From a virus (Duplodnaviria; Heunggongvirae; Uroviricota; Caudoviricetes), in the IMG/VR virus record IMGVR_UViG_3300032038_000042: a DNA stretch of 64,000 bases, one strand, 5' to 3'. The notes below the pieces were generated by a model. The model was not told the DNA's origin, did not search any database, and worked only from the letters and a program-made list of their open reading frames with translations. The position numbers were made by a program, and so were the translations under genes. This document shows, one piece after another, positions 8,868 through 61,065 of this stretch. Position 1 is the first letter of the stretch. Each line of letters begins with the position of its first letter.

Positions 8868-8924
8868 ATAAAAAATACTCCTTTATTCACTTAAACAATA
8901 AGTACTACACATAATATAGGTTTC

Positions 8925-8972
8925 TAAAAAGAAAAAAGTCAAAAGAAAAACCTCTCAAGAAAAGAGAGGTTT
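8925..8972 (-). terminator. Intrinsic terminator (AAACCTCTC / GAGAGGTTT) with a long U-run on the minus strand
   Basis: 9-bp stem at 8948-8972. On the minus strand it is followed by TTCTTTTGACTTTTTTC. Confidence 0.55.
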
Positions 8973-8988
8973 CTAGCAAATTGTTAAT

Positions 8989-9435
8989 TTAAATCTCTTC
9001 TTTTATGTAGTCATAAAGTCTTCCATAATCTGAAAGGTCATAAGTCTTTTCAGGATTTTCTCCAATTGAAATGCTTCCACCCCAATCCATTTCCCATATA
9101 AAGTAATCTGCTAAATCTTCAAGCTCGTTAACTTTTTCTTCTTCTGATAATTTACTTATAGATATTCCAAGCTCTTCTGCAATTTCTTCCAAAGATTTTC
9201 CTGGAGAATTTTCTTTATAAGTATCTAATCTTGTTTTATAAAAAGCTTTTTCATTTACAGCTGCAAAGAGAGTAACAACATGCTCAAAGACAAGGTCGGT
9301 AAGCCACTTTGGCATTACTCCACTTCCATCTTCTACAAAAGGATTCTGCTCTACCATTAAATCATGCTTCTTGTTTAACTTTTCATATTGCTCTTTAATC
9401 CTTTTCAATCTTGCAATAAAAGTTTCTTTAGTCAT
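8989..9435 (-). CDS. Hypothetical protein (148 aa)
   Basis: ORF with a 4-nt overlap to the upstream gene. Confidence 0.45.
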   Translation of the reverse strand: MTKETFIARLKRIKEQYEKLNKKHDLMVEQNPFVEDGSGVMPKWLTDLVFEHVVTLFAAVNEKAFYKTRLDTYKENSPGKSLEEIAEELGISISKLSEEEKVNELEDLADYFIWEMDWGGSISIGENPEKTYDLSDYGRLYDYIKEEI

Positions 9436-9913
9436 TTTTCTTTATCCTTGTTTCGTTATTAGTTATTAAAAACTCCGCAGTATTTCTCAAAAGATCTTTT
9501 ACATCATCGGAGTAGCCAAAACGCTTTTGATTCATTTCAATAGACTTAAAAATGTCACCATCGTCGTGTCTTTCTGAGGAAGCTTTCCAATCGCAAATCA
9601 ATTCAATCATGTCGATGAGATTCATATCTCTCATTCCATTCTTGAAATGTTCTGGATGATGCCTATTATTTGCATAATGTCTATCGAGTGCAGGTTTCAA
9701 ACCATCTAAGAATGATTTATATTCATCACTACCGTAAGTACAATTTGCTAGCTTTGGAGTATATTCATCGAATAACTCCTTCTCTACAGGATCTTCAATT
9801 TTATCCCAATCGTGCAATTCACCTCTTTCGTACAAAGTATCCGCGCAAGCATAAACATACTGCTTTACTTTTGCAATATGCTTTTTGGTATCTTTTGTTG
9901 AATCGTAACTCAT
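9428..9913 (-). CDS. Hypothetical protein, His-rich (possible metal-dependent hydrolase fold)
   Basis: Contains ...ELHDWDK...DRHYANNRHHPEHF... The HD-like or His-cluster assignment is only suggestive. Confidence 0.4.
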   Translation of the reverse strand: MSYDSTKDTKKHIAKVKQYVYACADTLYERGELHDWDKIEDPVEKELFDEYTPKLANCTYGSDEYKSFLDGLKPALDRHYANNRHHPEHFKNGMRDMNLIDMIELICDWKASSERHDDGDIFKSIEMNQKRFGYSDDVKDLLRNTAEFLITNNETRIKKND

Positions 9914-10740
9914 TATTTTTTCTCCTTTCCAAAATCGTTGTATCTTCCGGAGCTAAAAAACTCTTCATAGAAGTTATCTCGAAGAGTATCCCAAGCAACT
10001 ATAGAATCTATATCCTCATTGCTACAAGCTTTCGATTGCTCTTCCATAAAGTTCAAAACCTTTTGCATAGCGTCTCGGATAACTTTATTTTCTTTAGTCA
10101 AACAAATCTCTACTGCTTGTGTATCTTCAAAATCCTCTAAGCTACCGGACTTAGATTGCTTACCAAAATCAATTCCGTGATCAAAGCAAAGATTATTTTT
10201 AGCCTTTTCTCTTTCTGCATTATACTTTCTTTCGTAATATTCGGAAATTTTGGCTTCTAACTTCAACCACTCGCCAGTTCTTTTATGCAGCAATACACAA
10301 TCTTTTTCAGCAACGTTGTTTGGAACTTTGTAGCAATCGATCCTAAAAGTTTCAGTACCAAAACAACCAAACTTGTAAATGCCAGCTGGTTCAATTCCAT
10401 TTACATGTTTATAGAATGGTGAAAGCTTCATAAAAGCAGCTACCTCAGGACATGCATAAATTGCATCATAATCGTTTGAAATTATCATAGTTAATGTATT
10501 TCCAAAAAGGCGAGCTGCATCAAGTAACTTCTTTGTATCGTCAATCTCTACATTACTTAAATCAGCAACCTTTTGATCAAGTCGGGCTGTTGCAAAAGCT
10601 TTTTTTATTCTTTTGTAGTCTGCTTCAACCTTTACTTGAAACTCATAAAACTTTTTGAAATAGTCTCCTCCTAAAGATTCGAACATGTTAGGATCTGCTT
10701 TTCTGGTTTCTTTTATAAACACATAGTAGGGTTTAATCAT
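9913..10740 (-). CDS. Hypothetical protein
   Basis: The ORF is trimmed to an internal ATG (MIKPYYVF) preceded by GAGGAG, forming an ATGA overlap with the upstream gene. Confidence 0.45.
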   Translation of the reverse strand: MIKPYYVFIKETRKADPNMFESLGGDYFKKFYEFQVKVEADYKRIKKAFATARLDQKVADLSNVEIDDTKKLLDAARLFGNTLTMIISNDYDAIYACPEVAAFMKLSPFYKHVNGIEPAGIYKFGCFGTETFRIDCYKVPNNVAEKDCVLLHKRTGEWLKLEAKISEYYERKYNAEREKAKNNLCFDHGIDFGKQSKSGSLEDFEDTQAVEICLTKENKVIRDAMQKVLNFMEEQSKACSNEDIDSIVAWDTLRDNFYEEFFSSGRYNDFGKEKK

Positions 10741-11615
10741 TTTGTCTCCTCGTTTACTTGTTTTGCAATCTCTTCCCAATCTAAGTCAAGTGACTTTATA
10801 GCATCGACAATGTCGTGTAATAGCGGAGTTGGTATTTTAGAAACTTTGCTGACATTTATGATTCCTAACTTTTCGCATTCGTCAAAAAGCTCTTCTCTTT
10901 CTTTTGAATCATCTTTTATTCGATATTCCCAATCTTTTCCAAACTTTATACTTTCACCAAATTCTTTATCATCAGGACCAATTGCAAACTCTACATCAAA
11001 CCACTCGTTTTCACTTTCCGGAAGTCCCGGAATACAAATTCTTGCTTCAACTCTTTTACCATCTATAAGAGCTTTCATTGCTTCTTTCCAATTAAGCAAT
11101 GTCGGATCTTCAACTTCTGAAAGAAGTACCGGTTGTAAGTTATCGAAGTTTGGAGCTTCTGGAACTAGGGTTTCTGCAATTTTTTCAACTAAGTTTTTTT
11201 CAGCTTGCTCTTTACGAAACTCTCTTATATGTTTATTATGATCTTCTATAAAGTATCTCGCGTCTTGCTTGTTGCGATATGCTCTTATAAACTTCCAATC
11301 CTCTTCGCTAAATTGCTGACCAAGTTCAAAATAGTTGTAAAAACCGTCAGAAATAAATTCACAAACAATAAAATTAAACTCTGCTGAACTTCTCCTGAAA
11401 GGAACCCATAAAACTTCAAGATTCTTTTTTGCAAAGTCTATATAAAAAGTAAGCCATGTATCAAAAGGAAAAAGCGTGTTTATATGACAAGGTTTAATTA
11501 TTTGTTTAAGCCATTTTTCGAATTCGTCTCTCCAGCCTACTTGAGATACTGTATAGAATTCTTTTAAAGGAATTGGTTTAAAGTCTACAGTTTTCTGCAA
11601 AGAACTTTTTTCCAT
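10737..11615 (-). CDS. Hypothetical protein (292 aa)
   Basis: Long ORF in a co-directional early-gene-like block. Confidence 0.5.
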   Translation of the reverse strand: MEKSSLQKTVDFKPIPLKEFYTVSQVGWRDEFEKWLKQIIKPCHINTLFPFDTWLTFYIDFAKKNLEVLWVPFRRSSAEFNFIVCEFISDGFYNYFELGQQFSEEDWKFIRAYRNKQDARYFIEDHNKHIREFRKEQAEKNLVEKIAETLVPEAPNFDNLQPVLLSEVEDPTLLNWKEAMKALIDGKRVEARICIPGLPESENEWFDVEFAIGPDDKEFGESIKFGKDWEYRIKDDSKEREELFDECEKLGIINVSKVSKIPTPLLHDIVDAIKSLDLDWEEIAKQVNEETK

Positions 11616-11716
11616 ATAGTATAACTCCTCCTTTTGTATTTTGTTCCTATAGAGGACTTTTTTTAGCTAAAAATATTCTTGCACTTATACATTTTAATAT
11701 AGGTAAGACTTACAAA

Positions 11717-11749
11717 GAAAAAGCTGCTCTTTTTTTGAGCAGCTTTTTG
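11717..11749. terminator. Intrinsic terminator (AAAAGCTGCTC / GAGCAGCTTTT), bidirectional
   Basis: Perfect 10-11-bp stem with a TTTTTTT loop and flanking T/A runs. Same stem as at 10-43 and 50052-50086. Confidence 0.6.
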
Positions 11750-11762
11750 AAAGTTGCTTTAA

Positions 11763-12218
11763 TTACTTTGCTGTTGCAGAGCTTGTATCGGTAGCTATAA
11801 GCGAAACATCTGTTCCGTTAATTACAAGTTCGTAAAGTTTATCAGGAACACCAGATCTCCTATAAATAATGTATCTGTAGTAGAATTTAGTACGTATGTT
11901 ATTTTTTAGGTTTTCAAAATCTACAAAACGGTTAAAATCTAGGTTATTTGAAGCTTTATTTATTGTATTTTCGTATGTAGTTTCATACCAAGATTCAACC
12001 TCTTCAACAGTAGCACAATCTGGAACCGATATAAATTTTACAGTATCTCCATTATCGCGCTGTGCTGTAATTTCATTGTTTGAATTACCAGTACCGGAAT
12101 TTTCTGGAGTTTTAAAATCAAAACCACCTGAAGCCGAATTAGTACAAGCAACAAGGCTGCTACCAAACAAGGCTGCTACCAAAACTAACAGAACCAAATT
12201 AAACTTCTTCATTTTCAT
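11763..12218 (-). CDS. Lipoprotein
   Basis: N-terminus MKMKKFNLVLLVLVAALFGSSLVAC is a signal peptide with a lipobox L-V-A-C. Confidence 0.6.
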   Translation of the reverse strand: MKMKKFNLVLLVLVAALFGSSLVACTNSASGGFDFKTPENSGTGNSNNEITAQRDNGDTVKFISVPDCATVEEVESWYETTYENTINKASNNLDFNRFVDFENLKNNIRTKFYYRYIIYRRSGVPDKLYELVINGTDVSLIATDTSSATAK

Positions 12219-12361: not shown

Positions 12362-12733
12362 TTACACGGATTTTCTACATTGGTCTAAAAAACCTTTTCC
12401 ATATGTTTTTTCTGCATATTGTAAAAAAGGTTTTATATCATTTCCTGTAATGACATCTATCCCTAATTTATCTATCAACTCTATTTTAGCGACTTCTTTT
12501 TCGTTTAATCCTTCCGCGAGGTGCGTACCTTTAATTTCGATTAACTTATCGTGTACTTTAAAATCTGGATGAAAAATGTGGAACTTTTCATCATCTTCTT
12601 CCAGTTTATACGGTATTTCAATATCAGGATGATACTCAAACGGAATACCATAATCACGTAAATAGATGTAGTAAGCTAGCTCCCAAGAAGAGTCGAAAAC
12701 AATATTATCTAATATATACTGAACCTTTCGCAT
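12362..12733 (-). CDS. Small PD-(D/E)xK-like nuclease-fold protein
   Basis: ...DSSWE...HPDFKV...LIEIKGT shows D/E ... PD ... E-I-K spacing typical of restriction-endonuclease-like folds. Confidence 0.4.
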   Translation of the reverse strand: MRKVQYILDNIVFDSSWELAYYIYLRDYGIPFEYHPDIEIPYKLEEDDEKFHIFHPDFKVHDKLIEIKGTHLAEGLNEKEVAKIELIDKLGIDVITGNDIKPFLQYAEKTYGKGFLDQCRKSV

Positions 12734-15046: not shown

Positions 15047-18000
15047 TTGAATATTATGTTAACAGCTGAAACTAAAACAAGCACACTTTGGAAAGCCCAC
15101 AAAGGTTGGGGTTCTACACATACAGAAAGAGAAACATTTGAAGAGTTATATAGATCTTTTAAAGAAATTTCTAGTAACTCGATTTTAGCTTACGGAGATT
15201 TACTTCCAAGAAAACCTACAGACCAGTTTTTTGAGGATGTAAAAGCGCTCGATGCTACAAACGATACTGTTTACTATAAAGAGTCTTCTTTTAGAACTAT
15301 TCCTTTAATCAAAAAACATGTTAATGTAAGACTTACACCTGTTTCGCAGAATTGTGATCATGCATTCGTTATTGCAGATGTAAAAGGTAATCAGATTAAA
15401 AATATCATTCCGTACGATTTTAGTGATAGTGGAATTTACAACTACAAGCTTACGGACTTTTATGGTAATGAAATTCCATGGGGTATTTGCGACTGGGTTA
15501 TAGATACCAACTCTAGTTTGTTAACATTTAACAATGGAATACCAGACACTGTTAGTGCAGCTTATCCTCCAAAATTAACTTTTTATCAGTACATCGGACC
15601 TGTTGGAGAAAGACATTATATAGATGCTGTATTGTTTGATATTACAGAAGCTGTTTACGAACCATATAAACCGGTTTTGGATATTACAGATCTTGTATCA
15701 ACTCAACTTGATCAAATTGAAAAGGACTTTTTTAACAAAACAAAATTCTCCGGAGATGATACAAACCCTGGTATTGGTTTACAATATAACGTCTTATCTA
15801 ATGTAATTAAAACTGCGACTCAAGATCCAATAAAAGGTTACGACGATAATAGTAAAGCTCAAGTTGTAAGTTTAATTTCTCATTTAAAAGGTTCTACAAC
15901 AGATGCAGAAGTTCTATTTGTAAGTGAAGGAATTGATACTTCAAAAACATATAATATTCAAATAGAAGAAGGTGCAGCCGAAAAAGATAATATTGCTAAA
16001 ATAGAAACTGAAGATGGTTTTTTCATCATCCGAGGTTTGCCAGGAAATTATCAAGTAACAGTAGAGGAAGATCAAAGAGCATATGCAGCTCTTTTAGTTA
16101 AGGATAACGATACTCAAGAATACGAGGTTTTTTATCCAAGAGAAGAGTTAAATGTTACTTTAAAACTTCCAGTATTTGTAGATTTAATTAATTTCCCTCC
16201 ACATTTAAAGTTAACTACATTAACATCTTACTCGGATCACATTACACCACAATTTTACGGTCCACGTGTTGCGGACTTTGTAATTGCAGCAGGTAACTCT
16301 ACAGTTAATTGGCGTTCTGCAGATTATGTAGTTTACAATTATGAGGGTTTTTTCTTAAGAGATGCAATCGCAGCAAGAGAAGGTAATCACATTTTCTTAA
16401 GAAACGGTATTTACGAAAATGATAATAAAGAATTGCTCATTCCAAACAACATTTATCTGCACGGTGAATCTCGAGAAGAAGCAATCATTAAAAATGCAAA
16501 AATTAGATTAGGTAAAGATGCAAGCTTAGATACTCTCAGTTTTCAAGACTGCGAAGTAATAGTTGATAGTTATGCAGCAATAAAGAATTGTAATTTTACA
16601 AATACTCCAGTTTATGTAAGAAATGGACAAAAAACAGCTGTAATGCATGGTTGTTCTTTTGAAGATTTGGAAATAGATGGAAACGATCACATTGCAGATT
16701 CTCAGGTTTTACGATTAAAGATAACAGGTTCTGCAAACTTGTTCGGTACAGCTGTTGTTGAAACTTTAGATGTAAATAACGGAACTTTTGAAGCATTCGG
16801 GTCTTACATAAAGAGTTTTAAGCACACAGATGGAACATTTTACATAAACTCATGTAACATCGGAACATTAAATGTAATAAATAGTAGCAAAAATTCTGTA
16901 TTAAATACAACTGCAATCGGTTATGTTGAAAATCTTCCAGACTTTATCAAAATCGATACGAGTTATGTAACAAAGTTTTCTGACAAAATTACAAGAAGAG
17001 TTTATCCAGATGAAGCTACAATTCCGTATTACTCAAGTTTCGAAAGAAGAGTTTACGCAAAGTTACCAGATCCATTCTTATATGATGAAGAAACAAATAA
17101 ATTAAATATAAAAATCGATACAATTGAGCATACGATTTTTATTAACAAAAACGGTGAACTTCAATGTAGATTCTTCTCTGCAGATGAGATTTGGATTAAA
17201 GATCCCGATATTTTTAAAACTCAAATTGAAGATGTTTACAGTGAACATGCAGATACAAAATTAGATCATCCAAAGCCAATTCATGTAGAAGAGGCTTTAG
17301 TTGATATATACTGGTCTAAAGCAGATTTAAAAAATGGTAAAGTTCCAATCAGTCAACTTCCAGATTCTGTTGCTTACGGTGGTTTAAGTTTAGTTGGAAT
17401 GTGGTCTTTTGAAGACAGCGAAGGTAAATATCCAACTTTTGCAGATGTAGATACTCAATTTGGATCTGATGACGAATATACAGGGTTACAAAACGGTTGG
17501 TTCTTTATTGTAAGTGCATCTCATGCAGAAGATGATCCAGTTAAACCTCAATATTCAGAAGATGGTGTTGAATGGACTGCGGGTGACTGGATTATTTATA
17601 CAGGTGGAAAAAAGCATCTTATAGACTACTTAAAACCAATTCGTTTCTTGTATAAAGGTCAAAATGCAAGCTTACTAGAGAGTTCAAACGAAACTGTTAC
17701 GTATGAAATTCCATTAGAAAAGATAAAGCATGAAGTTTCTGGGGATGGAAGTTTTGAAGGCTCTTACGAAGGTAGCTATGAAGGTTCTTACGAGGGTAGT
17801 TACGAGGGAAGCTCAGAATCGAGTGGTGGAGGTGTTACTGTAATTGATTATGGTACAGTAACAATTGATAAAGAAGGAAAAATTGTAAAGACTTATAACT
17901 TACCTCGTACTTTTACAATTGGTAAGCTATTAAAAGATGTTCCTGGACTTTATATTCGAGAGTATCAATACTCAATGGTATCAGATGGAGATAGCTGGTC

Positions 18001-19771
18001 AAAATTAGATAGAGCTTATCTCGACCCTGTATACTCAAGATTACCAAACTTAGCAACTGCTGCAGGTGCAGACAATCCACAATGGTCTATTGAAGATGGA
18101 GGAACAGGTCTTTTAAGACTTTCTTATAAGTCCCTTGCAGAAGCAATTCGCTTAATTAACGAAACTCTTTTAAAGCTTTCTCCGGATAGACCTACATCTA
18201 TTCAAAACATCGATGTAATTTTTGATGAAGAAAAAACTACAGCTAAGCTTATAGATGTATATCCTATCAGTACAGGTTTGCAATTAAATCAAGTTATTAA
18301 AGAAAACGAACCTTTACATTATTATGATTCTGATTCCGGAAAAATATGCTTTAAGCAAAAAGGTGATCATGATTATTTACCTCTTGAGAATTGTTTTTAC
18401 TGCGGTACTTCATCAACAATAAAAGTTTTAGACTACGAAGGAGACAAAACAGAGGATGTTACCGATAAATATGCAACAATCGAAAGGTTTGATCCTTATC
18501 AAAAATACAGATTAGGTTTTAGAGCACCAACTGTAATGGATGCTGCAGAGGTATCTGGTACAATAAATCTCGGAGAAGGTGATTTTAGAGTTGCTCATAA
18601 GGTAAGGTTTGTACAAGAGGATTTAGTATGCACACCACAAGTAACAGACTTAAAAGAGACTTTAGAAGGTGAAACACGTTCATTTATAAGCTTTGTAGAA
18701 AGTAAAATTTATAAATTCGAATCGATAAAAGTTCAACCGTGTACAGCTCAAACAGTTAACTTGCGTGTCTTGAATACTTTCTTAAACTCTTGTAGGACAG
18801 GTGGATACGGATACGTACCAAACGGACAAAAAATTACCGGTACATTCTTAATTAAAAACTTTACAAAATACGGAGTTGTAGGTAAGGATGCTAATATCGA
18901 ATTAGCAGCTACATTTGCAGGTATTGATTTACCAATTACAATTGAATCTCAAACATTACTTGAAACAGATACAACGTACGAAACTTTTGATTTGGAAGTT
19001 GCATTTACTACTACTTTGCCAGCAGAAAAGGATTATTACGATAGTCAATTGTTGGTAACTGTAAGCGCAAGAAACTTCGATCAAGAAATTAAAAATGAGC
19101 AAGTTTTACTTATAAAAGATTTAATTACAATCAATCCCGATTCAATTCAAAAAATTGTTGAGCCAAGTGGTGCACTACTTTATCCGACTCTTGGAAGAGG
19201 TTCAAATACTTTCGGAGATGAGTATTTAGGTAAAACAGTTCTAAATGTAATCAATAGTCCAGAGCTTGTTTGGGAAGAAAACGGTTATGGTTGGCCAAAA
19301 AGGAGTAAGTTTGTAGATAGATTTAACTTACCAGAAAACGATTATGCAATTCCGGAGCAGAATGGTATAATTGTAGGTGACAATACCTATAGGTTTGTTT
19401 GCTATAAGTTTAGTTTTGACAAAATTCAGGATTTGTGCGGCTTTAATGTAAATTTTGAATGGGCTGAAAACGAACCTAAGTTAAAATCTATAGATGGTAC
19501 TTACGAAAACATAATGCTTCAAGTTTGTGTAGATTCTTTAGAAGCAAAACATAAATATTTGTTAAACGGAAATAAAGCAGTTCCAGTTTTCTTTGAAGCT
19601 ACTTTTGAACAAGATGAAACTTGCAACCACCCAGGAAAAAGTAATTTAACAAAACGAAGAATTACATTTGGTAGAAAACCTATTCCTATACAAGATATTT
19701 ATATAAGAGTTGGTGTTGCAAAAGATTCAGGTGTTAGAATTAAAAAATGCTATGTGACAACAGAGGAGTAA
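15047..19771 (+). CDS. Giant tail-fibre / tailspike-like protein with a parallel beta-helix (pectate-lyase-like depolymerase) region and a (GSYE)n repeat
   Basis: 1574-aa ORF with a TTG start at 15047 (the first ATG is at 15056). Residues about 430-620 show repeated NxxIxG / N-rich beta-helix rungs (…NAKIRLGKDASLDTLSFQDCEVIVD…NCNFTNTPVYVRNG…). GSYEGSYEGSYEGSYEGS lies at nt about 17758-17810. Confidence 0.6.
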   Translation: MNIMLTAETKTSTLWKAHKGWGSTHTERETFEELYRSFKEISSNSILAYGDLLPRKPTDQFFEDVKALDATNDTVYYKESSFRTIPLIKKHVNVRLTPVSQNCDHAFVIADVKGNQIKNIIPYDFSDSGIYNYKLTDFYGNEIPWGICDWVIDTNSSLLTFNNGIPDTVSAAYPPKLTFYQYIGPVGERHYIDAVLFDITEAVYEPYKPVLDITDLVSTQLDQIEKDFFNKTKFSGDDTNPGIGLQYNVLSNVIKTATQDPIKGYDDNSKAQVVSLISHLKGSTTDAEVLFVSEGIDTSKTYNIQIEEGAAEKDNIAKIETEDGFFIIRGLPGNYQVTVEEDQRAYAALLVKDNDTQEYEVFYPREELNVTLKLPVFVDLINFPPHLKLTTLTSYSDHITPQFYGPRVADFVIAAGNSTVNWRSADYVVYNYEGFFLRDAIAAREGNHIFLRNGIYENDNKELLIPNNIYLHGESREEAIIKNAKIRLGKDASLDTLSFQDCEVIVDSYAAIKNCNFTNTPVYVRNGQKTAVMHGCSFEDLEIDGNDHIADSQVLRLKITGSANLFGTAVVETLDVNNGTFEAFGSYIKSFKHTDGTFYINSCNIGTLNVINSSKNSVLNTTAIGYVENLPDFIKIDTSYVTKFSDKITRRVYPDEATIPYYSSFERRVYAKLPDPFLYDEETNKLNIKIDTIEHTIFINKNGELQCRFFSADEIWIKDPDIFKTQIEDVYSEHADTKLDHPKPIHVEEALVDIYWSKADLKNGKVPISQLPDSVAYGGLSLVGMWSFEDSEGKYPTFADVDTQFGSDDEYTGLQNGWFFIVSASHAEDDPVKPQYSEDGVEWTAGDWIIYTGGKKHLIDYLKPIRFLYKGQNASLLESSNETVTYEIPLEKIKHEVSGDGSFEGSYEGSYEGSYEGSYEGSSESSGGGVTVIDYGTVTIDKEGKIVKTYNLPRTFTIGKLLKDVPGLYIREYQYSMVSDGDSWSKLDRAYLDPVYSRLPNLATAAGADNPQWSIEDGGTGLLRLSYKSLAEAIRLINETLLKLSPDRPTSIQNIDVIFDEEKTTAKLIDVYPISTGLQLNQVIKENEPLHYYDSDSGKICFKQKGDHDYLPLENCFYCGTSSTIKVLDYEGDKTEDVTDKYATIERFDPYQKYRLGFRAPTVMDAAEVSGTINLGEGDFRVAHKVRFVQEDLVCTPQVTDLKETLEGETRSFISFVESKIYKFESIKVQPCTAQTVNLRVLNTFLNSCRTGGYGYVPNGQKITGTFLIKNFTKYGVVGKDANIELAATFAGIDLPITIESQTLLETDTTYETFDLEVAFTTTLPAEKDYYDSQLLVTVSARNFDQEIKNEQVLLIKDLITINPDSIQKIVEPSGALLYPTLGRGSNTFGDEYLGKTVLNVINSPELVWEENGYGWPKRSKFVDRFNLPENDYAIPEQNGIIVGDNTYRFVCYKFSFDKIQDLCGFNVNFEWAENEPKLKSIDGTYENIMLQVCVDSLEAKHKYLLNGNKAVPVFFEATFEQDETCNHPGKSNLTKRRITFGRKPIPIQDIYIRVGVAKDSGVRIKKCYVTTEE

Positions 19772-19775: not shown

Positions 19776-20906
19776 TTGAGTAATACATTTGATTTAAAAT
19801 CTGCTAAATTATATAAACCGGGCGCATATGAAACTTTTGATGATAATTTAGCAGATATACTAGTCGATGTTTTAAACGGAGATGAAAAATTATTAGAGAT
19901 GCCAGAAATACAATCTCTTGGTGCTCGTAACATAAAAGCAGCTTTAGAGTGGCTTGCAACAGCGGATGTAAATGGCGATTATAAAGATTTGTTAGCAAAA
20001 GAAGGTTGGCGTTTGATGTATCGTCGACGTCCTCCAACACCAGAAGAATACTTAACTTGGGATTGGATCGGGGCTCAGTCAGAAGGTTTGTGGCCAAATG
20101 TTAGGCATGCGTTTGTTGAATTTATGAATTTAAGTCCACTAAATCCAAAACGCGGATTAGCTCTATCAACCAGTATAGGTTGGGGAAAATCGCTCTTAAC
20201 CAACTTGTGCATGAGTTACATTATTACACTTTTCTGTTTAATGCGAGAACCTTTCAAAGTTTTAGGCCACAGCCCGATGACCTCATATTGCGTTTCACTT
20301 TGTAGTTATTCGCTCGGGAAAGCATGGGACTTGTTAGGTACTCCTTTTGAGCAATTCATTGAACAAAGTCCGATGTTTGAAAAGGTTGGTCGACGTGACG
20401 ATGTTGTAAATGCAAATAAACTAGATCCAAACTGTACAAAGATTTACTACTCAACAGCTGGTCGTGGATCTGCTCGTATGATTTATAGAAACAACCTTCA
20501 ATTAAAAATGATGTCTACAGAAGGTCACTTGTTAGGAAATGCACAACCGATGTATTCTAAAATCATGAAAGCAGACGGTAGCTACTACGAAATGAAGGAT
20601 GTAAAAGTCGGAGATAAAATTGCTTCTCCAACAGAAGGTGTTACAGAAGTAATTGGAGTGTTTCCTCAACCTAAAAAAAGACCAATTTACGAAATTGAAT
20701 TAGAGAATGGAAAAAAAGTAAGAGCTGCAGATAACCATCTTTGGAAAGTAGCAATAGATAAAGATGAGACTGGTAATTGGAATTGGCAAATTGTTAATAC
20801 CATGCAACTTAAAGATTGGTTAGAAAAAGGTATAGATGTAGAAATTTACGGAGAGGATAATGCTCCAGAATGTAAAATTCCAAAAAACAAAACAAGTGAA
20901 CTTTAA
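19776..20906 (+). CDS. Terminase large-subunit-like ATPase fragment ending in a Hint/intein-like segment; probably truncated or degenerate
   Basis: TTG start preceded by GAGGAG. Walker A ...RGLALSTSIGWGKSLL... and ...STAGRGSARMIY... align with T4 gp17 ...NLSRQLGKT... and ...RGNSFAMIYIDE..., but the Walker B DE is replaced by RNN. Residues about 258-376 match intein blocks A/B (…KADGSYYEMKDVKVGDKI…PIYEIELENGKKVRAADNHLWKV) and a block-F-like IDVEIY. The ORF then stops, with no HN-C/S/T junction and no nuclease domain. Confidence 0.5.
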   Translation: MSNTFDLKSAKLYKPGAYETFDDNLADILVDVLNGDEKLLEMPEIQSLGARNIKAALEWLATADVNGDYKDLLAKEGWRLMYRRRPPTPEEYLTWDWIGAQSEGLWPNVRHAFVEFMNLSPLNPKRGLALSTSIGWGKSLLTNLCMSYIITLFCLMREPFKVLGHSPMTSYCVSLCSYSLGKAWDLLGTPFEQFIEQSPMFEKVGRRDDVVNANKLDPNCTKIYYSTAGRGSARMIYRNNLQLKMMSTEGHLLGNAQPMYSKIMKADGSYYEMKDVKVGDKIASPTEGVTEVIGVFPQPKKRPIYEIELENGKKVRAADNHLWKVAIDKDETGNWNWQIVNTMQLKDWLEKGIDVEIYGEDNAPECKIPKNKTSEL

Positions 20907-20911
20907 AAATT

Positions 20912-20956
20912 GGTAGCTTTCTTGCTAAGTTTCTTTAAAAAGTGCAGAAAGCTACC
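20912..20956. terminator. Bidirectional hairpin between convergent genes (GGTAGCTTTCT ... AGAAAGCTACC)
   Basis: Perfect 11-bp inverted repeat with a 23-nt loop, flanked by A- and T-rich runs. It lies between the + ORF ending at 20906 and the minus-strand ORF ending at 20965. Confidence 0.5.
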
Positions 20957-20964
20957 AATCCTTT

Positions 20965-21711
20965 TCACTCGTTATCGTTACCAGTTTCAAATGAACTGTC
21001 TCCGAAAATCCAATCAAGAGCATCTTCATAATCCTGGGAAGCCAAAGTTCTACAATCTGGATTTTCCCTTGGATCTGACTGATGATCGATGTAACCACCA
21101 AAATCAATCCAATTGGAAATATCTGGATGTGCTTTCCATTCATTCAATGGAGCTTCTTTCAAGTGCTCCAAAGATTTAATGAAGCAACTCTCTCCGTAGT
21201 CACCCTCTGTCTCCCAAAAGGTGTCTCGATCATCTCCAATGAATTTGTGTTCTTCGTTCATGTAGTGGAAGTAACTGAATTTGCAACCCTTTTCTTTAAG
21301 GAAATCAAAAAGACCTTTTACTTTATCGTAAGCAAGATTGCGGATGTAATTGACATTTTCTTCATCAATTTCCTTGTAGTGCTTAATCCAATATTCATCG
21401 TTCTTTTCTTTTGCTCTTGCAATGTCCGTTAGCGAGCCAAAACAAAATGAATACTCTCCCCAGGACTTTTCAAGGTTGTGACGTTCTCCATACTCATTTT
21501 TCTGCATAAGGGAAAGCCAATCGCATAAAGCAACCAGGTAGTAAGAAAACTTTGACTGTGAATCAGAGTAACTTTCGAACTCCCATCCGAACTCATCACC
21601 TTTCCAATTTAAAGTACCATTTTTACCTGCACCGCTTCCTTTTGAAGCGAATGTAAGTGAATGTGCTGAACTTGAATTTGTTTCAAACGTATTTATACGA
21701 ATCGATTTCAT
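20965..21711 (-). CDS. Member 1 of the MKSIR-xx-TFETNSSS-xHS N-terminal family (acidic, 248 aa)
   Basis: N-terminus MKSIRINTFETNSSSAHSLTF. It shares its first ~18 residues with the ORFs at 32513, 40449 and 46999, which otherwise have unrelated bodies. Confidence 0.55.
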   Translation of the reverse strand: MKSIRINTFETNSSSAHSLTFASKGSGAGKNGTLNWKGDEFGWEFESYSDSQSKFSYYLVALCDWLSLMQKNEYGERHNLEKSWGEYSFCFGSLTDIARAKEKNDEYWIKHYKEIDEENVNYIRNLAYDKVKGLFDFLKEKGCKFSYFHYMNEEHKFIGDDRDTFWETEGDYGESCFIKSLEHLKEAPLNEWKAHPDISNWIDFGGYIDHQSDPRENPDCRTLASQDYEDALDWIFGDSSFETGNDNE

Positions 21712-23429
21712 GCTTCCTCCAAAAACTGGCTAAATTGTTTAATCTGACTTGCTGTATAAACCTTTTCAATTGGCATATCAATCTTTCTACACCAGTCGGA
21801 AACGATTGAAGGATCGATATACGAATTTTTTGCTGTTCCTGACGTAAAATTCTGGTTACGTTCTTTTGACTCAAGGTTAAGCTCAGCTTGATCGATTTTA
21901 GCTTTTGATTTTTCAATCTGCTCTTTCAAAGCTTTAATCTTATCCTTGTAACCATCCTTTTTAGCAGCTTTCAAAGCCTTGATCTTTTCTTCACGCTTTT
22001 TATTCTGCTCTACAACTTTTGCTTTACGCTCGTCGAGTTTTTCTTCAGAAGCTTTGAAGCTTGCTTTACGCTTTTCTTCAGCAACCTTATTTACACCACG
22101 CTGATGATTCAAACGACGTGCAACCTGCATTGTAGCTTCATCAAATGCAATCTTTTTAAGTGCAATTGGCGAATCTTTTGTTACTTTGAACTTTGCAGTC
22201 ATCTCTTCAAGTGCTTTAGTAGCTGTATAAGCTGCAACTGCAGTACGTGCAAGTTTTGGAGTAAAGATTCCGTCAAGCTCTGGAACGACCTGAGAAATGT
22301 ATTGCTTAATCTGAAGCTTATCTGTCTTGAGCTTTTTGTCCTTTGCCCAAGTTTCTTCAATAACATCTGCATATTCAGTTTCAATTACGCTTGTATCTCT
22401 TACAGAATCTTTTCCGTAAAAGTCAAACTTAATTTTATTTCCTGAACGCTTAACTTCTTTTCCCCATTCAAGTGCAAGAAGCCCTTTTGTACCATTTATA
22501 GTTTCGCTTGCAGAACCAATTCGAATACCTTTTTCGAAAAGCATGAAAACTGCAACTGCTGTACTCAAGTCCTTTTTTGCTTTAAAATCGCTTGCTATTT
22601 TTGCAAGTACTTTTTCGTAAGATTTTCCAAGTGTTGCTCCTGCAGCGTACTTTTTTGTCTGGCCTTCCTTCTTTACGGAAGAAGCAGCAGCAAACTGAAT
22701 CATCTTGTATTTTGTTGACTTAAGTGTTTTGATAGAACCATCTGCATTTGGAATTCCAACATTAATGTTGTACTGAGCAGCAAAATGTGATTCTGGATTC
22801 CAATCAACGTTCCAAGCAAAACCACTTGTAATTAGCATTTCACCATCTTCGCCATAATAAAGCACTTCTGGAAGCTTTTTGCTGTTTGTGTTAAGTTTAA
22901 CATCTGCAGCTGTATTTTCGAATTTCCAATATCCGTTAAGGGGTGAATCTCCTCGTCCGAAGAAAATTCCTTCTGGTTCAATTGTCCAGCTTGCAAGCGG
23001 TTCGTCGTTACCGTTAATCTTTACAATACCGTATTTTGCTTTAAGTTCTTCATTCTGCTTTTTGATTTCGGCTGCATTAGCCTTTTTCCAAGCAGCTTTG
23101 CATTCTTTTGCTTCCGCGTACCATTTACGCCATTTTGCAATTTCTTTATCGTTTGCTACAAAATTAACCAAATCTGGATACTTTGTAAAGTCTTTTCCAC
23201 CTGCAGAAGCAATGCAGGTAAAAACACGCTTAATAAACTTTGTATCCTGCATGCAAGGAAGTTCCGGATTAATACGACAAAAAGCTCCAAAAATGCGGTC
23301 TGAAAGTTTATTTTTATCTGCAAAAGGGGGAACTGGGATTCTTGCTGGAATACCAATTCCTTTTATTTCTACTGATGTTAAATCCTGTAACTTCATTTCG
23401 TAACCTCGCCGTATAATATAGTGATACAC
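21708..23429 (-). CDS. Type IB DNA topoisomerase (573 aa) with an N-terminal extension and a coiled-coil linker between the catalytic His and Tyr
   Basis: ...FYGKDSVRD... (Arg), ...TPKLARTAVAAYTATK... (Arg), ...ARRLNHQRG... (His) and ...GTAKNSYIDPSIVSDWCRK... align with poxvirus/bacterial TopIB motifs (...GTSKLNYLDPRITVAWCKK...). About 95 residues of K/E-rich heptad sequence separate the His and Tyr. Confidence 0.7.
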   Translation of the reverse strand: MYHYIIRRGYEMKLQDLTSVEIKGIGIPARIPVPPFADKNKLSDRIFGAFCRINPELPCMQDTKFIKRVFTCIASAGGKDFTKYPDLVNFVANDKEIAKWRKWYAEAKECKAAWKKANAAEIKKQNEELKAKYGIVKINGNDEPLASWTIEPEGIFFGRGDSPLNGYWKFENTAADVKLNTNSKKLPEVLYYGEDGEMLITSGFAWNVDWNPESHFAAQYNINVGIPNADGSIKTLKSTKYKMIQFAAASSVKKEGQTKKYAAGATLGKSYEKVLAKIASDFKAKKDLSTAVAVFMLFEKGIRIGSASETINGTKGLLALEWGKEVKRSGNKIKFDFYGKDSVRDTSVIETEYADVIEETWAKDKKLKTDKLQIKQYISQVVPELDGIFTPKLARTAVAAYTATKALEEMTAKFKVTKDSPIALKKIAFDEATMQVARRLNHQRGVNKVAEEKRKASFKASEEKLDERKAKVVEQNKKREEKIKALKAAKKDGYKDKIKALKEQIEKSKAKIDQAELNLESKERNQNFTSGTAKNSYIDPSIVSDWCRKIDMPIEKVYTASQIKQFSQFLEEA

Positions 23430-27260: not shown

Positions 27261-28550
27261 ATGTGGAAAATTCACGGAGAAATGGTCTCTAACGAAAGAG
27301 ACGTAATGGAACATTTTGGTCTAAAATACCCACCTATTGTAAAATCACTTTTGGATACCGACTTATATAAGTATAGCATGGGCCAAACGTATCATCATCA
27401 ATTTGGAAATCTAAAGACAACTTGGGATTTTAAAGCTCGCAATGTTGGCGAAAACACAACTCACACTTCTATCTATACAGAAGAGGACAAAAAAGAGATA
27501 AACAATCAGCTTTGCGCTTACGCAGCACTTCGTTTTGATGAAGATGAATTGCAATATCTCAATGCAAAATGTCCTTGGATTAAGCAAGATTACATCAACT
27601 TCTTGCGCTTTTGGCATCCACGCCTAGAAGACTTTCAATGCACAACTAACAACAAGTTCGGTAATGGAATTATGTTTTTTGGTGTTCAAGAGTATATTGA
27701 ATACTACGAGATTCCAGTCCTCGAAATTTTTGCCGAAGTCTATTACAGAAACCACTACAATTATGATGAGCTTCTTGCAGGTTTCAAAGAAAAGACTAAC
27801 GAAAAAATCGCTGAAATGAAGAGCAACAAAGACCTTCATTTTGGAACTTGGTCAGAGTTTGGAGCACGTCGTCGCCTTTCATTTGAAGCTCAAGACTGGT
27901 TGATTGGTCGTCTTACAGAAGAAAAGCTTCCAGGTTTTATTGGAACTTCAAACGTTCTTTTGGCAAAAAAGTATAAAGTCACACCTGTTGGAACTTGTGC
28001 TCATGAATTTATTGAATGCGTTGGCCAGGGAAATCCAATGTACAATCCAGCTTACAGCAATAAGATTGCAATGGAAGCTTGGATAAAAGAATATGGTGTT
28101 TGGAACGGAATTTGGTTGACTGACACTATTGGTGATGAACTTTGCCGTAGAGACATGCAAAAAACTTATGCAACACTTTTCAGTGGAGTTCGTAACGATT
28201 CCGGAGATCCATTTAAGTGGGCAGATGATTGGATAAATCATTATACCAATCTTGGAATTGATCCAAAAACCAAAACTTTGCTTTTCAGTAACAGTATAAA
28301 TTCTCTTGAGCTTTGGTCAAAGTTGTGCTTTTATGTCGAAGGTCGTGCTAAACCTGCTTTCGGAATTGGAACGTATTGGTCTGGCCCGCAAACTATTGAT
28401 CCTCTTAACATTGTTGCAAAAGTCGTTCTTGTAAATGGAAAAGATGTTGCAAAACTTTCTGATGATAGCGGAAAGACAATGAGTCGTAGTCAAGAGTATG
28501 TTGATTACCTTCGCAGAACTCTCGATTGGCGTTTAAAATCTGAGGAGTAA
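27261..28550 (+). CDS. pncB: Nicotinate phosphoribosyltransferase
   Basis: ...SLLDTDLYKYSMGQTYHHQFGN... matches the PncB N-terminal signature (E. coli ...[20 protein letters not shown]...). The 429-aa length is typical. Strong SD. Confidence 0.8.
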   Translation: MWKIHGEMVSNERDVMEHFGLKYPPIVKSLLDTDLYKYSMGQTYHHQFGNLKTTWDFKARNVGENTTHTSIYTEEDKKEINNQLCAYAALRFDEDELQYLNAKCPWIKQDYINFLRFWHPRLEDFQCTTNNKFGNGIMFFGVQEYIEYYEIPVLEIFAEVYYRNHYNYDELLAGFKEKTNEKIAEMKSNKDLHFGTWSEFGARRRLSFEAQDWLIGRLTEEKLPGFIGTSNVLLAKKYKVTPVGTCAHEFIECVGQGNPMYNPAYSNKIAMEAWIKEYGVWNGIWLTDTIGDELCRRDMQKTYATLFSGVRNDSGDPFKWADDWINHYTNLGIDPKTKTLLFSNSINSLELWSKLCFYVEGRAKPAFGIGTYWSGPQTIDPLNIVAKVVLVNGKDVAKLSDDSGKTMSRSQEYVDYLRRTLDWRLKSEE

Positions 28551-28553
28551 AAA

Positions 28554-29135
28554 ATGATTACACCAAAACTTTTGAATAAAACAAAAGAAGTAGACCTTAT
28601 CAAAACTCCAGTCTTTACTGTTGTTGAAAAAGAATACGAAAATCTGGAATTCAAACCAGTAGGATTGAATTGCAAAGATTGGGTAATGGTTATTGCTAAA
28701 GACTCAATTTCAGATCCAGTCTGTGTTTTTGTAAAGCAAACAAGATGGGGTTGTGAGCATTCCACAATTGAATTTCCTTGCGGTACAGTAGACTTAAATG
28801 AAAGTCCTGTAGAAGCTGCAGTAAGAGAATTTCGAGAAGAAACAGGTATTGAGGTTGCACAATCTTCGTTAAAAGAGATTGCAACATTCAATCCAAATCC
28901 AGCTTACTTTAACAATCTTATGCACATTTTTGAATTTGTAGACAGAGGTTTGTTGAGCAAGTTCTTAAATAAGAAAAAGCAAAAGCTGGATAAAAACGAG
29001 GATTGCGAAGTCTTTGTTGATAGACTTGAAAATCAAGCAACACTCTTAAAGAAAGGTGGAATGAGTTTAATTGGATATGTATATGCTTCAAAAGTAAATA
29101 CATCTGCAAAGTACGAATTGAAGGAGATTAAATAA
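28554..29135 (+). CDS. Nudix hydrolase
   Basis: Perfect Nudix box GTVDLNESPVEAAVREFREETGI (Gx5Ex7REUxEExGU). Confidence 0.75.
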   Translation: MITPKLLNKTKEVDLIKTPVFTVVEKEYENLEFKPVGLNCKDWVMVIAKDSISDPVCVFVKQTRWGCEHSTIEFPCGTVDLNESPVEAAVREFREETGIEVAQSSLKEIATFNPNPAYFNNLMHIFEFVDRGLLSKFLNKKKQKLDKNEDCEVFVDRLENQATLLKKGGMSLIGYVYASKVNTSAKYELKEIK

Positions 29136-29136
29136 C

Positions 29137-29712
29137 ATGAAAAATAAATTTTTAGTTGTAATTGATATGCAGAATGATTTCTGTACAGGTGCTTTGAAAA
29201 ACGATGATGCAGTAGCTGTAATTCCTTTTATTAAAAAGCAGATTGAGGAAGCTCGTAAGAATGGTACTCGAATTGTTTATACTCGCGATACTCACGGAAG
29301 CGATTATATGGAAACACTCGAAGGAAAGCATCTTCCATTTCCTCACTGCTTGAATGAATCCTTTGGTTGGGAAATCGTAGATGAACTTAAACCAGTTAAT
29401 CCGATAGTATTTGCTCCCTTTGGAGTTATTTGTAAGATGATTGAGAATGATCCAAAAGCCGATATTGTTGTAAACAAAAATCATTTCGGTTTTGATGGAT
29501 GGAAACATCTCATTCCAGAAGATTCAGAAGTAACAATGGTTGGAACTTGTACAGATATCTGCGTGGTTTCAAACGCATTAGCTATTAAGACTATTGAAGG
29601 TGTTGAAGTAACAATTCTTGCAAATGGTTGCGCTGGTTTGACAAAAGAAAAGCACGAACATGCTCTTGATGTAATGGAAAGTTGTCAGTGTAAAGTTGTT
29701 AGAGGAGAGTAA
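29137..29712 (+). CDS. pncA: Nicotinamidase (isochorismatase-family cysteine hydrolase)
   Basis: FLVVIDMQNDFCTGAL aligns with E. coli PncA LLLVDLQNDFCAGGAL. Catalytic Cys context ...VGTCTDICVVSNA. Confidence 0.75.
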   Translation: MKNKFLVVIDMQNDFCTGALKNDDAVAVIPFIKKQIEEARKNGTRIVYTRDTHGSDYMETLEGKHLPFPHCLNESFGWEIVDELKPVNPIVFAPFGVICKMIENDPKADIVVNKNHFGFDGWKHLIPEDSEVTMVGTCTDICVVSNALAIKTIEGVEVTILANGCAGLTKEKHEHALDVMESCQCKVVRGE

Positions 29713-29714
29713 AA

Positions 29715-30524
29715 ATGGGTCCAAAAAAGTTCGATGTAAAAGAAGTTCACGACGAGATTATTGAGTTTATTAAAGACTTCTTTAAGGATAAAAATGGTCC
29801 TGCTACATTAGGAATTTCCGGGGGAAAGGACAGTACCATTTGTGCAGCTTTGTTAGCAGAAGCTTTAGGTCCAAAAAGAGTTGTTGGCGTAATGATGCCA
29901 AACGGTGTCCAGATGGACCTTAACGACTCTGTCAAAGTTTGTGAACTTTTGGGAATTCAGGCAATGAAAGTAAACATTGGTCCAGTTTACGATGCTTTGA
30001 GAGATCAGATTGATACATCTGATATTAAAGAGTCTCCTGATCAGTGGACACCTCTTTTCACAACAAATACTCCTGCACGACTTCGAATGGTAACACTTTA
30101 CGGTATTGCTGCTCAACTTGGCGGCTTTGTTTGCAACACTTGCAACTATTCAGAAGACTTTGTCGGTTACTCTACAAAGTATGGAGATTGTTGCGGAGAC
30201 TTTTCTTTATTGAATCAGCTTACAAAAACTGAAGTTGTTGCTTTAGGTGACTATATGAAACTTCCAAAAGAGTTAGTTCATAAAACACCTTCGGATGGAA
30301 TGTGCGGAAAGAGTGATGAAGATAATATGGGCTTTACATATGACTCTTTGGATACTTTTATCAGAACTGGATTAGCTCCAAAATCATTTGAAGTTTATAA
30401 CAAAATCAAAAAGATGCATCTCAATCCAAATACAAAACTAAAGTTGCTGCCAATGTCTTATCCGGAATTGCATTTGGAAGAAAATTGGAAGTTTGAAGAC
30501 CCAATTGGAGAAGTTTTAGCTTAA
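29715..30524 (+). CDS. nadE: NH3-dependent NAD+ synthetase
   Basis: PP-loop GISGGKDSTICAALL (SGGxDS). The 269-aa length matches NadE. Confidence 0.75.
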   Translation: MGPKKFDVKEVHDEIIEFIKDFFKDKNGPATLGISGGKDSTICAALLAEALGPKRVVGVMMPNGVQMDLNDSVKVCELLGIQAMKVNIGPVYDALRDQIDTSDIKESPDQWTPLFTTNTPARLRMVTLYGIAAQLGGFVCNTCNYSEDFVGYSTKYGDCCGDFSLLNQLTKTEVVALGDYMKLPKELVHKTPSDGMCGKSDEDNMGFTYDSLDTFIRTGLAPKSFEVYNKIKKMHLNPNTKLKLLPMSYPELHLEENWKFEDPIGEVLA

Positions 30525-37359: not shown

Positions 37360-37383
37360 TTTTTTAAGCGTTTAAGCTTTACA

Positions 37384-37415
37384 ATCCTCTGGAAATTTCC
37401 AGAGGATTTTTTTTG
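37384..37415 (+). terminator. Intrinsic terminator (ATCCTCTGGAAA / TTTCCAGAGGAT + TTTTTTTT)
   Basis: Perfect 12-bp palindrome immediately followed by a T-run. Confidence 0.7.
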
Positions 37416-37479
37416 AAAATTGCTAATGGTGTTTTACCTATATTATATAGAACTTATTGGTTGTAGGAGATTAAAAAAA

Positions 37480-38013: not shown

Positions 38014-38039
38014 ATAAATATAAAGGAGAAACTTTTAAT

Positions 38040-60575: not shown

Positions 60576-60744
60576 TTTATGTACCTTCTTAGTTTTAAGT
60601 CGTGTAGTAATAAAACTTTAGCAAAAAATATAGTTTACGACCTTTAAAAATATTCAAAAATTTAAGTGCTATTTAAAAAATACCTTTTATAGGAACTTTT
60701 ATTCAAAATAAAACCTATATTATAAGCACGAGGTAACGAAAAAA

Positions 60745-61065
60745 ATGACATTACTTGATCATCAGTTTCTTTTAAGTCTTCCAAAACGGAGAGGTTTTAC
60801 AAAGTGTACAATAAATAACAATGTATACGCAAATATCTACACACTTGGAATTCCGAACAGAGCTTCTAAGTCAGGTTATTCATATTTCTGCGGAACAGAT
60901 AAAGGTAATCCGTGGAAAGGAAGAGAGAATGCGATAGACGAGATTTACCACGATTTGAAGGATTACGTCGATCGCAGAATTGGTACAGAATTTGAAAAAA
61001 ATGTAAAGGATTTAATTCCTTACGTAAAGCGTTTTGAAAGAGCATTTCCAGGAGTATTGAAGTGA
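60745..61065 (+). CDS. Hypothetical protein (106 aa) preceding rtcB
   Basis: ORF with an ATGA overlap into rtcB. Confidence 0.45.
   Translation: MTLLDHQFLLSLPKRRGFTKCTINNNVYANIYTLGIPNRASKSGYSYFCGTDKGNPWKGRENAIDEIYHDLKDYVDRRIGTEFEKNVKDLIPYVKRFERAFPGVLK

Follow-up and report, generated by a model that had tools for sequence, protein, structure and literature searches.

One open reading frame (ORF) in a 64,000-nucleotide stretch of viral DNA (IMG/VR virus record IMGVR_UViG_3300032038_000042, Caudoviricetes; the whole stretch is called the window below) raises the question of why a terminase gene should stop partway through its ATPase domain and run on into an intein-like segment. An earlier interpretation made from the letters and their translations, here called the sequence-only reading, had seen a terminase-like ATPase with an intact Walker A motif, a substituted Walker B motif, and a Hint/intein-like remnant in place of a nuclease domain. 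It had left three explanations standing, namely, a decayed terminase gene, a terminase split by an intein whose other half is encoded elsewhere, and a domesticated ATPase-Hint fusion. Our analysis favors the second. The ORF is very likely the N-terminal half of a large terminase gene (terL; product, TerL) split by a natural class 3 intein, and its product is predicted to be joined by trans-splicing to that of a distant C-terminal half.

The host protein and its partner gene

A search of 5.8 billion proteins for relatives of the ORF returned 101, of strikingly varied lengths. Uninterrupted homologues (P0020, P0102, and P0128; P and L numbers designate the proteins and loci compared here) read ...STEGHLLGN|TIIYAAMTELAWW..., that is, HLLGN|TIIYAAMTE, whereas the window protein and about 40 cluster representatives reach HLLGN, continue as AQPMYSKIMK..., and stop about 110 to 120 residues further on. 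Since the uninterrupted homologues run from LLGN into TIIY and the window protein runs from LLGN into AQP, the host portion, or N-extein, comprises residues 1 to 255; the rest is the intein N-fragment (IntN). Removal of the element restores the host exactly, in that LLGN joined to TIIYAAM is the sequence of the uninterrupted homologues. The N-extein aligns co-linearly with the first third of the uninterrupted TerLs, at 79% identity, and the ORF occupies a conserved terL synteny, which consists of a 597-amino-acid (aa) ORF, a 93-aa ORF, a 1571/1574-aa ORF, and then terL.

The family is too divergent for sequence profiles, and its TerL membership rests on the fold and on an alignment, made with hhalign, to an annotated TerL. 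Neither the ORF nor its full-length homologues matched a Pfam terminase model, the PHROG terL match of the family was weak (E = 0.0026), and no TerL was among the matches in a profile search against PDB sequences. The TerL-type ATPase fold was found, as was a C-terminal RNase-H-like nuclease domain, the latter in the C-extein of the partner described below; the nuclease domains matched were those of G20c (14.1), P74-26 (13.2), RB49 (12.6), P22 (11.8), and Sf6 (11.6). Furthermore, the family profile aligned with the annotated TerL of Xanthomonas phage phiXF1 over 506 columns (hhalign probability, 99.8%; E = 6.5e-29).

Walker A is intact, as the sequence-only reading had said (Table 1), and its G137 and K138 are invariant in 18 diverse N-halves. 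The supposed substitution of Walker B did not hold up. The RNN taken for it lies at residues 238 to 240, within the preceding beta-hairpin (strands E229-233 and E237-242 of the P0102 model), and the real motif is in the partner. The Walker B strand of the family is TIIYAAM[T/S]E, which is absent from the window ORF. In the hhalign alignment, TFAATLDE of phiXF1 pairs with TIIYAAMTE, and in the P0102 model, residues 252 to 259 form a beta-strand followed by the family-invariant E260. This places Walker B in the strand that opens the C-extein, with the intein inserted right where that strand begins. All members of the family have the motif in a noncanonical form, hhhhh[T/S]E instead of hhhhDE, in which the Glu never varies and Thr or Ser stands in for the Asp; in the related TerL of phiXF1, the canonical DE is kept. 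The replacement is a family trait and not a defect of the window gene.

When the C-terminal part of an uninterrupted relative was used as the query, 314 proteins were found. Among the cluster representatives, at least 22, each about 490 aa long, open with the 36-aa MKIKSIKYVGKEECQCIKVSAKDEMYVTDEKILTHN, followed by TIIYAAMTE... and the rest of TerL. This 36-aa intein C-fragment (IntC) carries block F (CQCIKV), block G, a terminal His-Asn (THN), and Thr as the first residue after it (Thr+1). The partner of the window ORF, P0260 (491 aa, starting MKIKSIKY...), is made up of the 36-aa IntC and a 455-residue C-extein with the Walker B strand, the remaining ATPase, and the nuclease. Its gene was located on ENA contig ERZ27256903 k141_2087336 (L039; 394,539 bp), which is 100.000% identical to window positions 9776 to 30906 over the 21,131 bp compared. 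On this contig, P0260 is encoded at 94824-96299 (+) and the N-half at 37308-38438 (-), so that the two terL halves lie 56,386 bp apart, on opposite strands, and are divergently transcribed. P0220, a member of the N-half cluster, equals the window protein save for the annotated first residue (M for L). Mapped to window coordinates, the partner falls about 36.6 kb before position 1, which explains its absence from the window and from the 94-kb contig to which the window belongs. Within the 64 kb of the window, no C-extein or IntC was found by tblastn with uninterrupted and C-half homologues, by permissive tblastn with short IntC peptides, or by IntN and IntC hidden Markov models (HMMs) in six frames; the family HMMs, likewise in six frames, detected a single IntN.

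As the sequence-only reading had noted, the ORF itself has neither a C-terminal splice junction nor a nuclease domain. A separate C-half bearing an intein C terminus and a nuclease, which that reading had named as the mark of a split gene, exists in P0260, and its proposal of a terminase split by an intein with the C-half encoded elsewhere was correct. The product spliced in silico from residues 1 to 255 and P0260 residues 37 to 491 is 710 aa long, is 81% identical to P0102, and keeps 55 of the 55 invariant and 60 of the 61 near-invariant family columns.

The host phage genome is at least 394.5 kb. Window positions 58214 to 64000 map past the end of the 394.5-kb contig, so either the genome is larger or that assembly breaks there; the RtcB gene of this segment was recovered from the same sample on another contig, 3.8 kb long, consistent with this mapping. 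Judged from assembly names and the literature on 'Jug' phages (PMC12880540) only, the carrying samples appear to be gut or rumen.

Intein class and predicted splicing chemistry

Fused in silico to the partner IntC, the IntN matched the gp41-1 split intein (PDB 6RIZ and 6QAZ; E = 2.5e-10), with both segments aligned, including ILTHN. PHROG matches (E = 1.5e-8 to 2e-3) fell in the intein parts of primase, helicase-loader, and terminase families that carry inteins. Intein blocks A (AQPMYSKIMKADG...) and B (...DNHLWK) are present, and H321, at position B:10, is invariant. Together with the weak Pfam and Foldseek matches given below, these results confirm the C-terminal Hint/intein-like part of about 120 residues that had been claimed. 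The same reading had called IDVEIY block-F-like; this segment is instead the last IntN strand, like the end of gp41-1 IntN, and the real blocks F (CQCIKV) and G (THN|T) are in the partner.

Intein residue 1 is Ala256. No Cys, Ser, or Thr stands at that position, and the Ala is invariant in 40 IntN cluster representatives and in the 18 diverse N-halves. Ala1-Gln-Pro and DNHLWK are invariant in the 40 representatives, and Ala1 and HLWK are kept in N-halves that are only 35% identical. With the class 3 motif positions set by alignment to gp41-1 and 6RIZ, the Trp-Cys-Thr (WCT) triplet is formed by W323 (B:12) in the window ORF and by Cys16 (F:4) and Thr34 (G:5) in the partner IntC. F:4 is the second Cys of CQCIKV, which lies opposite an Asp in gp41-1 and an engineered Cys in 6RIZ, and G:5 is the Thr of THN. 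Thr+1 is found in all 22 IntC-bearing partner representatives and in P0260. The class 3 signature was defined by Tori et al. (PMC2807308) as the absence of an N-terminal nucleophile, a WCT triplet, and Ser or Thr at +1; with Ala1, Trp B:12, Cys F:4, Thr G:5, and Thr+1, it is therefore complete here. Read from these residues, the element is the N-fragment of a naturally split class 3 intein, whose chemistry is predicted.

Selection acts on this fragment. The dN/dS of IntN was 0.04 to 0.23 against five relatives, and that of the adjacent extein was 0.04 to 0.15; against the closest relative, L036, the IntN value was 0.043 (dN, 0.007; dS, 0.16). IntN is under purifying selection.

In the predicted reaction, the two polypeptides would associate via IntN and IntC and fold into a Hint domain. 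Cys16 (F:4) of IntC would attack the Asn255-Ala256 peptide bond to give a thioester branch, and the N-extein would be passed to Thr+1 of the C-extein. Cyclization of the terminal Asn36 of IntC and an O-to-N shift would then make the LLGN-TIIY peptide bond, yielding a contiguous 710-aa TerL. The class 3 pathway has been shown experimentally for MP-Be DnaB (PMC2807308), for split AceL NrdHF (PMC7891396), and for artificially split DnaB1 (PMC10559147). Since neither half has a complete ATPase active site, packaging would depend on trans-splicing.

The features of the ORF and its flanks are listed in Table 1. The TTG start lies 4 nucleotides (nt) past the stop of the upstream 1574-aa ORF and is also used by independent gene calls in other assemblies (MSNTFDLKSAKLY...). 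At the 3' end, the strong terminator that the sequence-only reading had placed 4 nt after the ORF corresponds to a strong hairpin, which begins 2 nt past the TAA stop; the end that it gave, 20956, takes in this hairpin, and the ORF itself ends at 20906. The fold, with a stem of 14 bp, has a dG of -24.9 kcal/mol and a z of -5.2, and not one of 200 shuffled sequences was as stable. The hairpin is probably a bidirectional intrinsic terminator; a simple consensus terminator scan did not call it because its loop is long. L036, which comes from an independent assembly, shares this 3' end from the stop codon through the hairpin to the downstream gene. An identical N-half protein was found on 17 contigs read from independent assemblies, and the 3' arrangement is the same in the six places compared. 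The 1574-aa ORF directly upstream of terL (window 15047-19771, +) has no PHROG match and contains an internal GSYEGSYEGSYEGSYEGS repeat; it keeps this position in the close relatives of the window and also in L001, L004, and L031, whereas L003, L006, and L032 do not have it there.

Table 1. Features of the terL N-half and its flanks, in window coordinates
Feature	Position	Strand	Remark
terL N-half gene (N-extein + IntN, 376 aa)	19776..20906	+	TAA at 20904-20906
GGAG ribosome-binding site	19764..19767	+	8 nt before TTG start; read directly in the sequence
N-extein, TerL residues 1-255	19776..20540	+	N-terminal helical region and first part of ATPase domain; ends ...EGHLLGN
Walker A P-loop GWGKS, residues 135-139	20178..20192	+	
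RMIYRNN segment, residues 234-240	20475..20495	+	Beta-hairpin preceding Walker B, not Walker B
IntN, residues 256-376, 121-aa N-fragment of split intein (class 3 by signature)	20541..20903	+	From Ala1 (AQPMYSKIMK...)
IntN segment aligned with HLW of class-3-converted gp41-1 structure 6RIZ	20730..20744	+	Identical in all 40 IntN cluster representatives and all 18 N-halves, even at 35% identity
IDVEIY, final IntN beta-strand	20832..20849	+	Right before split site (gp41-1 IntN/IntC boundary); not block F, which is held by the partner IntC
Intergenic hairpin, A/T runs on both flanks	20909..20960	.	Between convergent terL N-half (+) and 248-aa ORF (-)

Alternative explanations and history of the locus

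Several points weigh against trans-splicing of the two halves. Taken alone, the ORF matches Pfam Intein_splicing (E = 0.02; 15.1 bits) and Hint (E = 0.04) below the gathering threshold, which is 35.8 bits for Intein_splicing. With IntN and IntC fused in silico, the Intein_splicing match rises to 22.1 bits (E = 1.4e-4) and reaches the profile end but is still under the cutoff. Thus, of the profile matches that the sequence-only reading had looked to, those to intein and Hint models appeared, weakly, and that to a Pfam terminase did not. In the AF2 model of the ORF alone, the pLDDT in IntN is about 70 to 83, and the top 25 Foldseek matches of this model in the PDB are all inteins, the best being class 3 DnaB inteins and class-3-converted gp41-1; their E values are weak (≥0.014), with large root mean square deviations, as is to be expected of half a Hint domain, which should not fold by itself. 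Thr+1 and the replacement of the block F His by Asp could slow splicing. The partner lies off the window and its 94-kb contig and is linked to it via an independent contig, whose identity to the window extends over the 21 kb available for comparison, and a second, intact terL could be present elsewhere in the ≥394.5-kb genome. Finally, trans-splicing is predicted from sequence and not from experiment; the anatomy, the partner, the synteny, and the conservation are observed, and we infer the splicing chemistry and its necessity.

The main rival holds that the two halves assemble noncovalently, with the intein fragments acting as dimerization modules and no splicing taking place. The two intein fragments would associate in any case, the nucleophile Thr+1 is a weak one, splicing itself is a prediction, and there is a precedent in a fragmented phage NrdA, which is described as joined through interaction domains (PMC3045599). 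We nonetheless consider such assembly unlikely, given that residues needed only for the chemistry are invariant (Ala1, His B:10, and Trp B:12 in IntN; Cys F:4, Thr G:5, the penultimate His, and the terminal Asn in IntC; and Thr+1) and that a 157-aa Hint domain, if retained where the Walker B strand begins, would lie within the core of the ATPase. Decay of the terminase, whether in a defective element or beside a functional terL elsewhere, would make the Hint piece a relic and would agree with an ORF lacking Walker B and the nuclease and with a 64-kb window lacking the partner. It is very improbable in view of the dN/dS of 0.04 to 0.23, which is alike in the extein and IntN, the identical ORF on the 17 contigs read, the partner with an intact IntC in the same genome, the invariance of the catalytic residues in the 40 representatives, and the retention of every one of the invariant family residues.

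Selection, invariant residues, and the existence of a matching C-half also speak against a domesticated ATPase-Hint fusion with a new, nonpackaging function. Stand-alone Hint fusions exist in other systems, and nothing specific to this locus favors one; since the extein is co-linear with uninterrupted TerLs, with the identity given above, and stands in conserved terL synteny, we give this option hardly any credence. An artifact or RNA-level event near 20900, such as a misjoin, a frameshift, or a group I intron, might be suspected because terL fragmentation in 360- to 402-kb gut 'Jug' phages has been ascribed to group I introns (PMC12880540). However, the same stop codon, hairpin, and downstream genes recur in many independent assemblies, which excludes a misjoin; a conserved, selected IntN follows LLGN, while the C-half opens with IntC on the opposite strand 56 kb away; and Rfam models at the gathering threshold detected no intron in the window, in the terL loci of L003, L031, and L036, or in the partner locus L045. 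The chance of such an event is close to negligible, and the concern of the sequence-only reading about this junction is dispelled by its recurrence. Trans-splicing of a split terL thus remains the best explanation.

The arrangement of the two halves in relatives bears on how they came apart. The C-half keeps its ancestral right-hand neighbors (255-aa and 398-aa ORFs), and the N-half keeps the left-hand ones; since each half retains its own ancestral flank, the gene was pulled apart at the split site. A single inversion was rejected as the cause of dispersal. A 585-aa ORF that in relatives borders the block adjoins the C-half here, about 46 kb from the N-half block, and more than one rearrangement is therefore needed. 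In L003, L031, and L032, the halves are adjacent, 1.3 to 1.8 kb apart, with Vsr-like or DUF7487 ORFs between them; these intervening ORFs are mostly related to one another, and that of L032 is broken in two. The three loci have the classic organization of a fractured gene. Unlinked halves also occur elsewhere. In L035, the 10 kb downstream of an N-half contain no C-half, and L007 has a C-half that follows an endonuclease-type ORF, without an N-half. In L036, the terL piece that ends in the IntN of the window is likewise followed by the 248-aa ORF and a topoisomerase gene, and no partner gene lies within 10 kb downstream.

The split terL is comparable to the fractured phage genes, including a phage terminase locus (Dassa et al. 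2009, PMC2677866), in which an essential gene is likewise cut at an endonuclease-insertion point into an N-extein-IntN ORF and an IntC-C-extein ORF; the relatives L003, L031, L032, and L036 carry a free-standing Vsr-like or DUF7487 endonuclease-type ORF. In the genome of the window, by contrast, the halves are 56.4 kb apart on opposite strands, no endonuclease gene (no Vsr-like or DUF7487 homologue) lies beside either half, and the locus falls outside the fractured-gene definition (PMC2677866). A 123-aa ORF in the window (12362-12733, -) resembles the C-terminal part of the L031 DUF7487 ORF (tblastn E = 1.4e-14) and may be a piece of, or be related to, a mobile gene of the endonuclease type.

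In this lineage, terL has two additional intein sites, GWGK|...|SLL in the P-loop and LGH|S, each of them seen in contiguous as well as split forms. In L036, the region from 8131 to 12110, with 92 to 96% nucleotide identity to the window, holds terL in at least three pieces. Piece 1 has its P-loop interrupted by a contiguous Ala1 intein of ~240 aa and terminates with an IntN at LGH|S; it is followed by a 555-aa Vsr-like ORF on the opposite strand; and piece 2 consists of an IntC, the middle extein, and the IntN of the window. Near-identical phages thus differ sharply in the inteins that they carry. In distant clades (P0074, P0075, P0081, P0086 to P0088, and P0092), the same IntN family (AQPLD...HLWK) occurs about 25 residues upstream, after WTTAxxT; thus, the family occupies two neighboring sites in different lineages. 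In 17 IMG/VR viral contigs (L014 to L030), the match is confined to the N-terminal part of the query, mostly its IntC, 16 of them with 47 to 67% identity over about 35 to 47 aa and L029 with 25% over residues 3 to 203. If these are related intein C termini, they may sit in other phage genes. A match in Salicola phage SCTP-2 was set aside as an intein in a different gene and not a terL relative.

A broader scenario, which we put forward tentatively and regard as possible rather than probable, is that this lineage (contigs up to about 400 kb) would carry split, canonical-WCT class 3-type inteins at up to three TerL sites (P-loop, LGH|S, and LLGN|T) and would build its motor from two to four pieces by parallel, mutually specific trans-splicing, the genome of the window having lost the endonuclease and dispersed the halves by 56 kb. 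If so, splicing would have become fixed and domesticated and could make motor assembly conditional on the coexpression of two transcription units, and the literature searched would contain only one earlier family of natural split class 3 inteins and none with the canonical triplet.

Relation to known inteins and neighboring genes

In the cyanobacterial DnaE split intein, the halves of an essential gene lie at distant loci on opposite strands, without an endonuclease, and are trans-spliced. That system is cellular, is of class 1, and concerns DNA polymerase III alpha, whereas the window case concerns a phage packaging ATPase and bears a class 3 signature. The IntN of the window (121 aa) is longer than that of gp41-1 (88 aa). 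By sequence, gp41-1 (6QAZ and 6RIZ) is the closest solved relative, with the same split position, an IntC of 37 aa (36 aa here), and the same C terminus, ILTHN. It is a class 1 intein in a helicase, with Cys1, Asp F:4, and Phe B:12, whereas the window intein has Ala1, Cys F:4, and Trp B:12; these natural residues are the substitutions that were engineered into 6RIZ (C1A, F65W, and D107C).

In a 2020 survey (PMC7891396), none of 1701 class 3 inteins was split, and a single deviant case was described. This case, AceL NrdHF (Hoffmann et al. 2020, PMC7891396), the first reported natural split class 3 intein, shares Ala1, an internal Cys nucleophile in IntC, and a phage-like metagenomic origin with the window intein. 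It differs in its deviant MCT triplet, its lack of a penultimate His, its ribonucleotide reductase host, and its adjacent GIY-YIG gene, whereas the window intein has a canonical WCT triplet, a penultimate His, a TerL host, and unlinked halves. Besides AceL NrdHF, no natural split class 3 intein was found described in the literature searched. In phage helicases and terminases, cis-splicing class 3 inteins (MP-Be DnaB, PMC2807308; Msm/Mch DnaB1, 6BS8/6RIX) likewise have WCT, no N-terminal nucleophile, Thr or Ser at +1, and P-loop ATPase hosts, including TerL; they are contiguous, usually contain LAGLIDADG, and lie mostly in the P-loop, whereas the window intein is split and lies at the start of the Walker B strand.

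AceL-TerL and GOS-TerL (PMC11766414) are also naturally split in phage TerL, but they are of class 1 with an atypical split (IntN, 25 to 37 aa; IntC, 104 to 115 aa), in contrast to the class 3-type intein and canonical 121 + 36 aa split seen here. The 'Jug' phages (PMC12880540, 2026; 360 to 402 kb, gut) have a similar genome size and carry terL in two to three fragments; their fragmentation is ascribed to group I introns, whereas the break in the window is at the protein level (IntN/IntC), with no Rfam intron. Class 3 inteins in terminases (PMC2807308; bioRxiv 10.1101/2025.01.02.630785) and split inteins in phage genes, terminases among them (PMC2677866; PMC11766414), were already known. Notable here are the split class 3 type with a canonical WCT, as predicted from its residues, the multisite fragmentation in relatives, and the unlinked halves without an endonuclease.

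A "Walker-B-less" or seemingly truncated terminase of a huge phage can thus be half of a working gene, and completeness checks, TerL phylogenies, and "defective prophage" calls go wrong if split inteins are ignored. In huge gut phages, at least part of the reported terL fragmentation may be overcome by the joining of proteins and not by introns. The active site of the packaging ATPase would be completed only after protein ligation. The family also offers canonical-WCT split pairs with a cysteine-free N-junction and Thr or Ser at +1, with up to three apparently orthogonal intein pairs in one host protein.

Other genes of the window were noted in passing. A 573-aa eukaryote-type topoisomerase IB (21708-23429, -) comprises Topoisom_I_N (E = 3e-14), the catalytic core (E = 8e-19), and Topo_C_assoc (E = 2e-13) and is kept in the relatives L036 and L039 to L043. 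To our knowledge, the full eukaryotic topoisomerase IB architecture is unusual for a phage. A four-gene NAD salvage/synthesis block (27261-30524, +) encodes an NAPRTase, a NUDIX hydrolase, an isochorismatase-family (nicotinamidase-like) protein, and an NAD synthase; its Pfam labels were taken from the identical locus L039, and PHROG also matches the nicotinamide phosphoribosyl transferase family. At 61062-62291 (+), the window encodes an RtcB RNA ligase, after which comes tRNA-Arg(TCT) (62697-62771, +), and in L003 a cluster of seven tRNAs lies about 6 kb downstream of terL.

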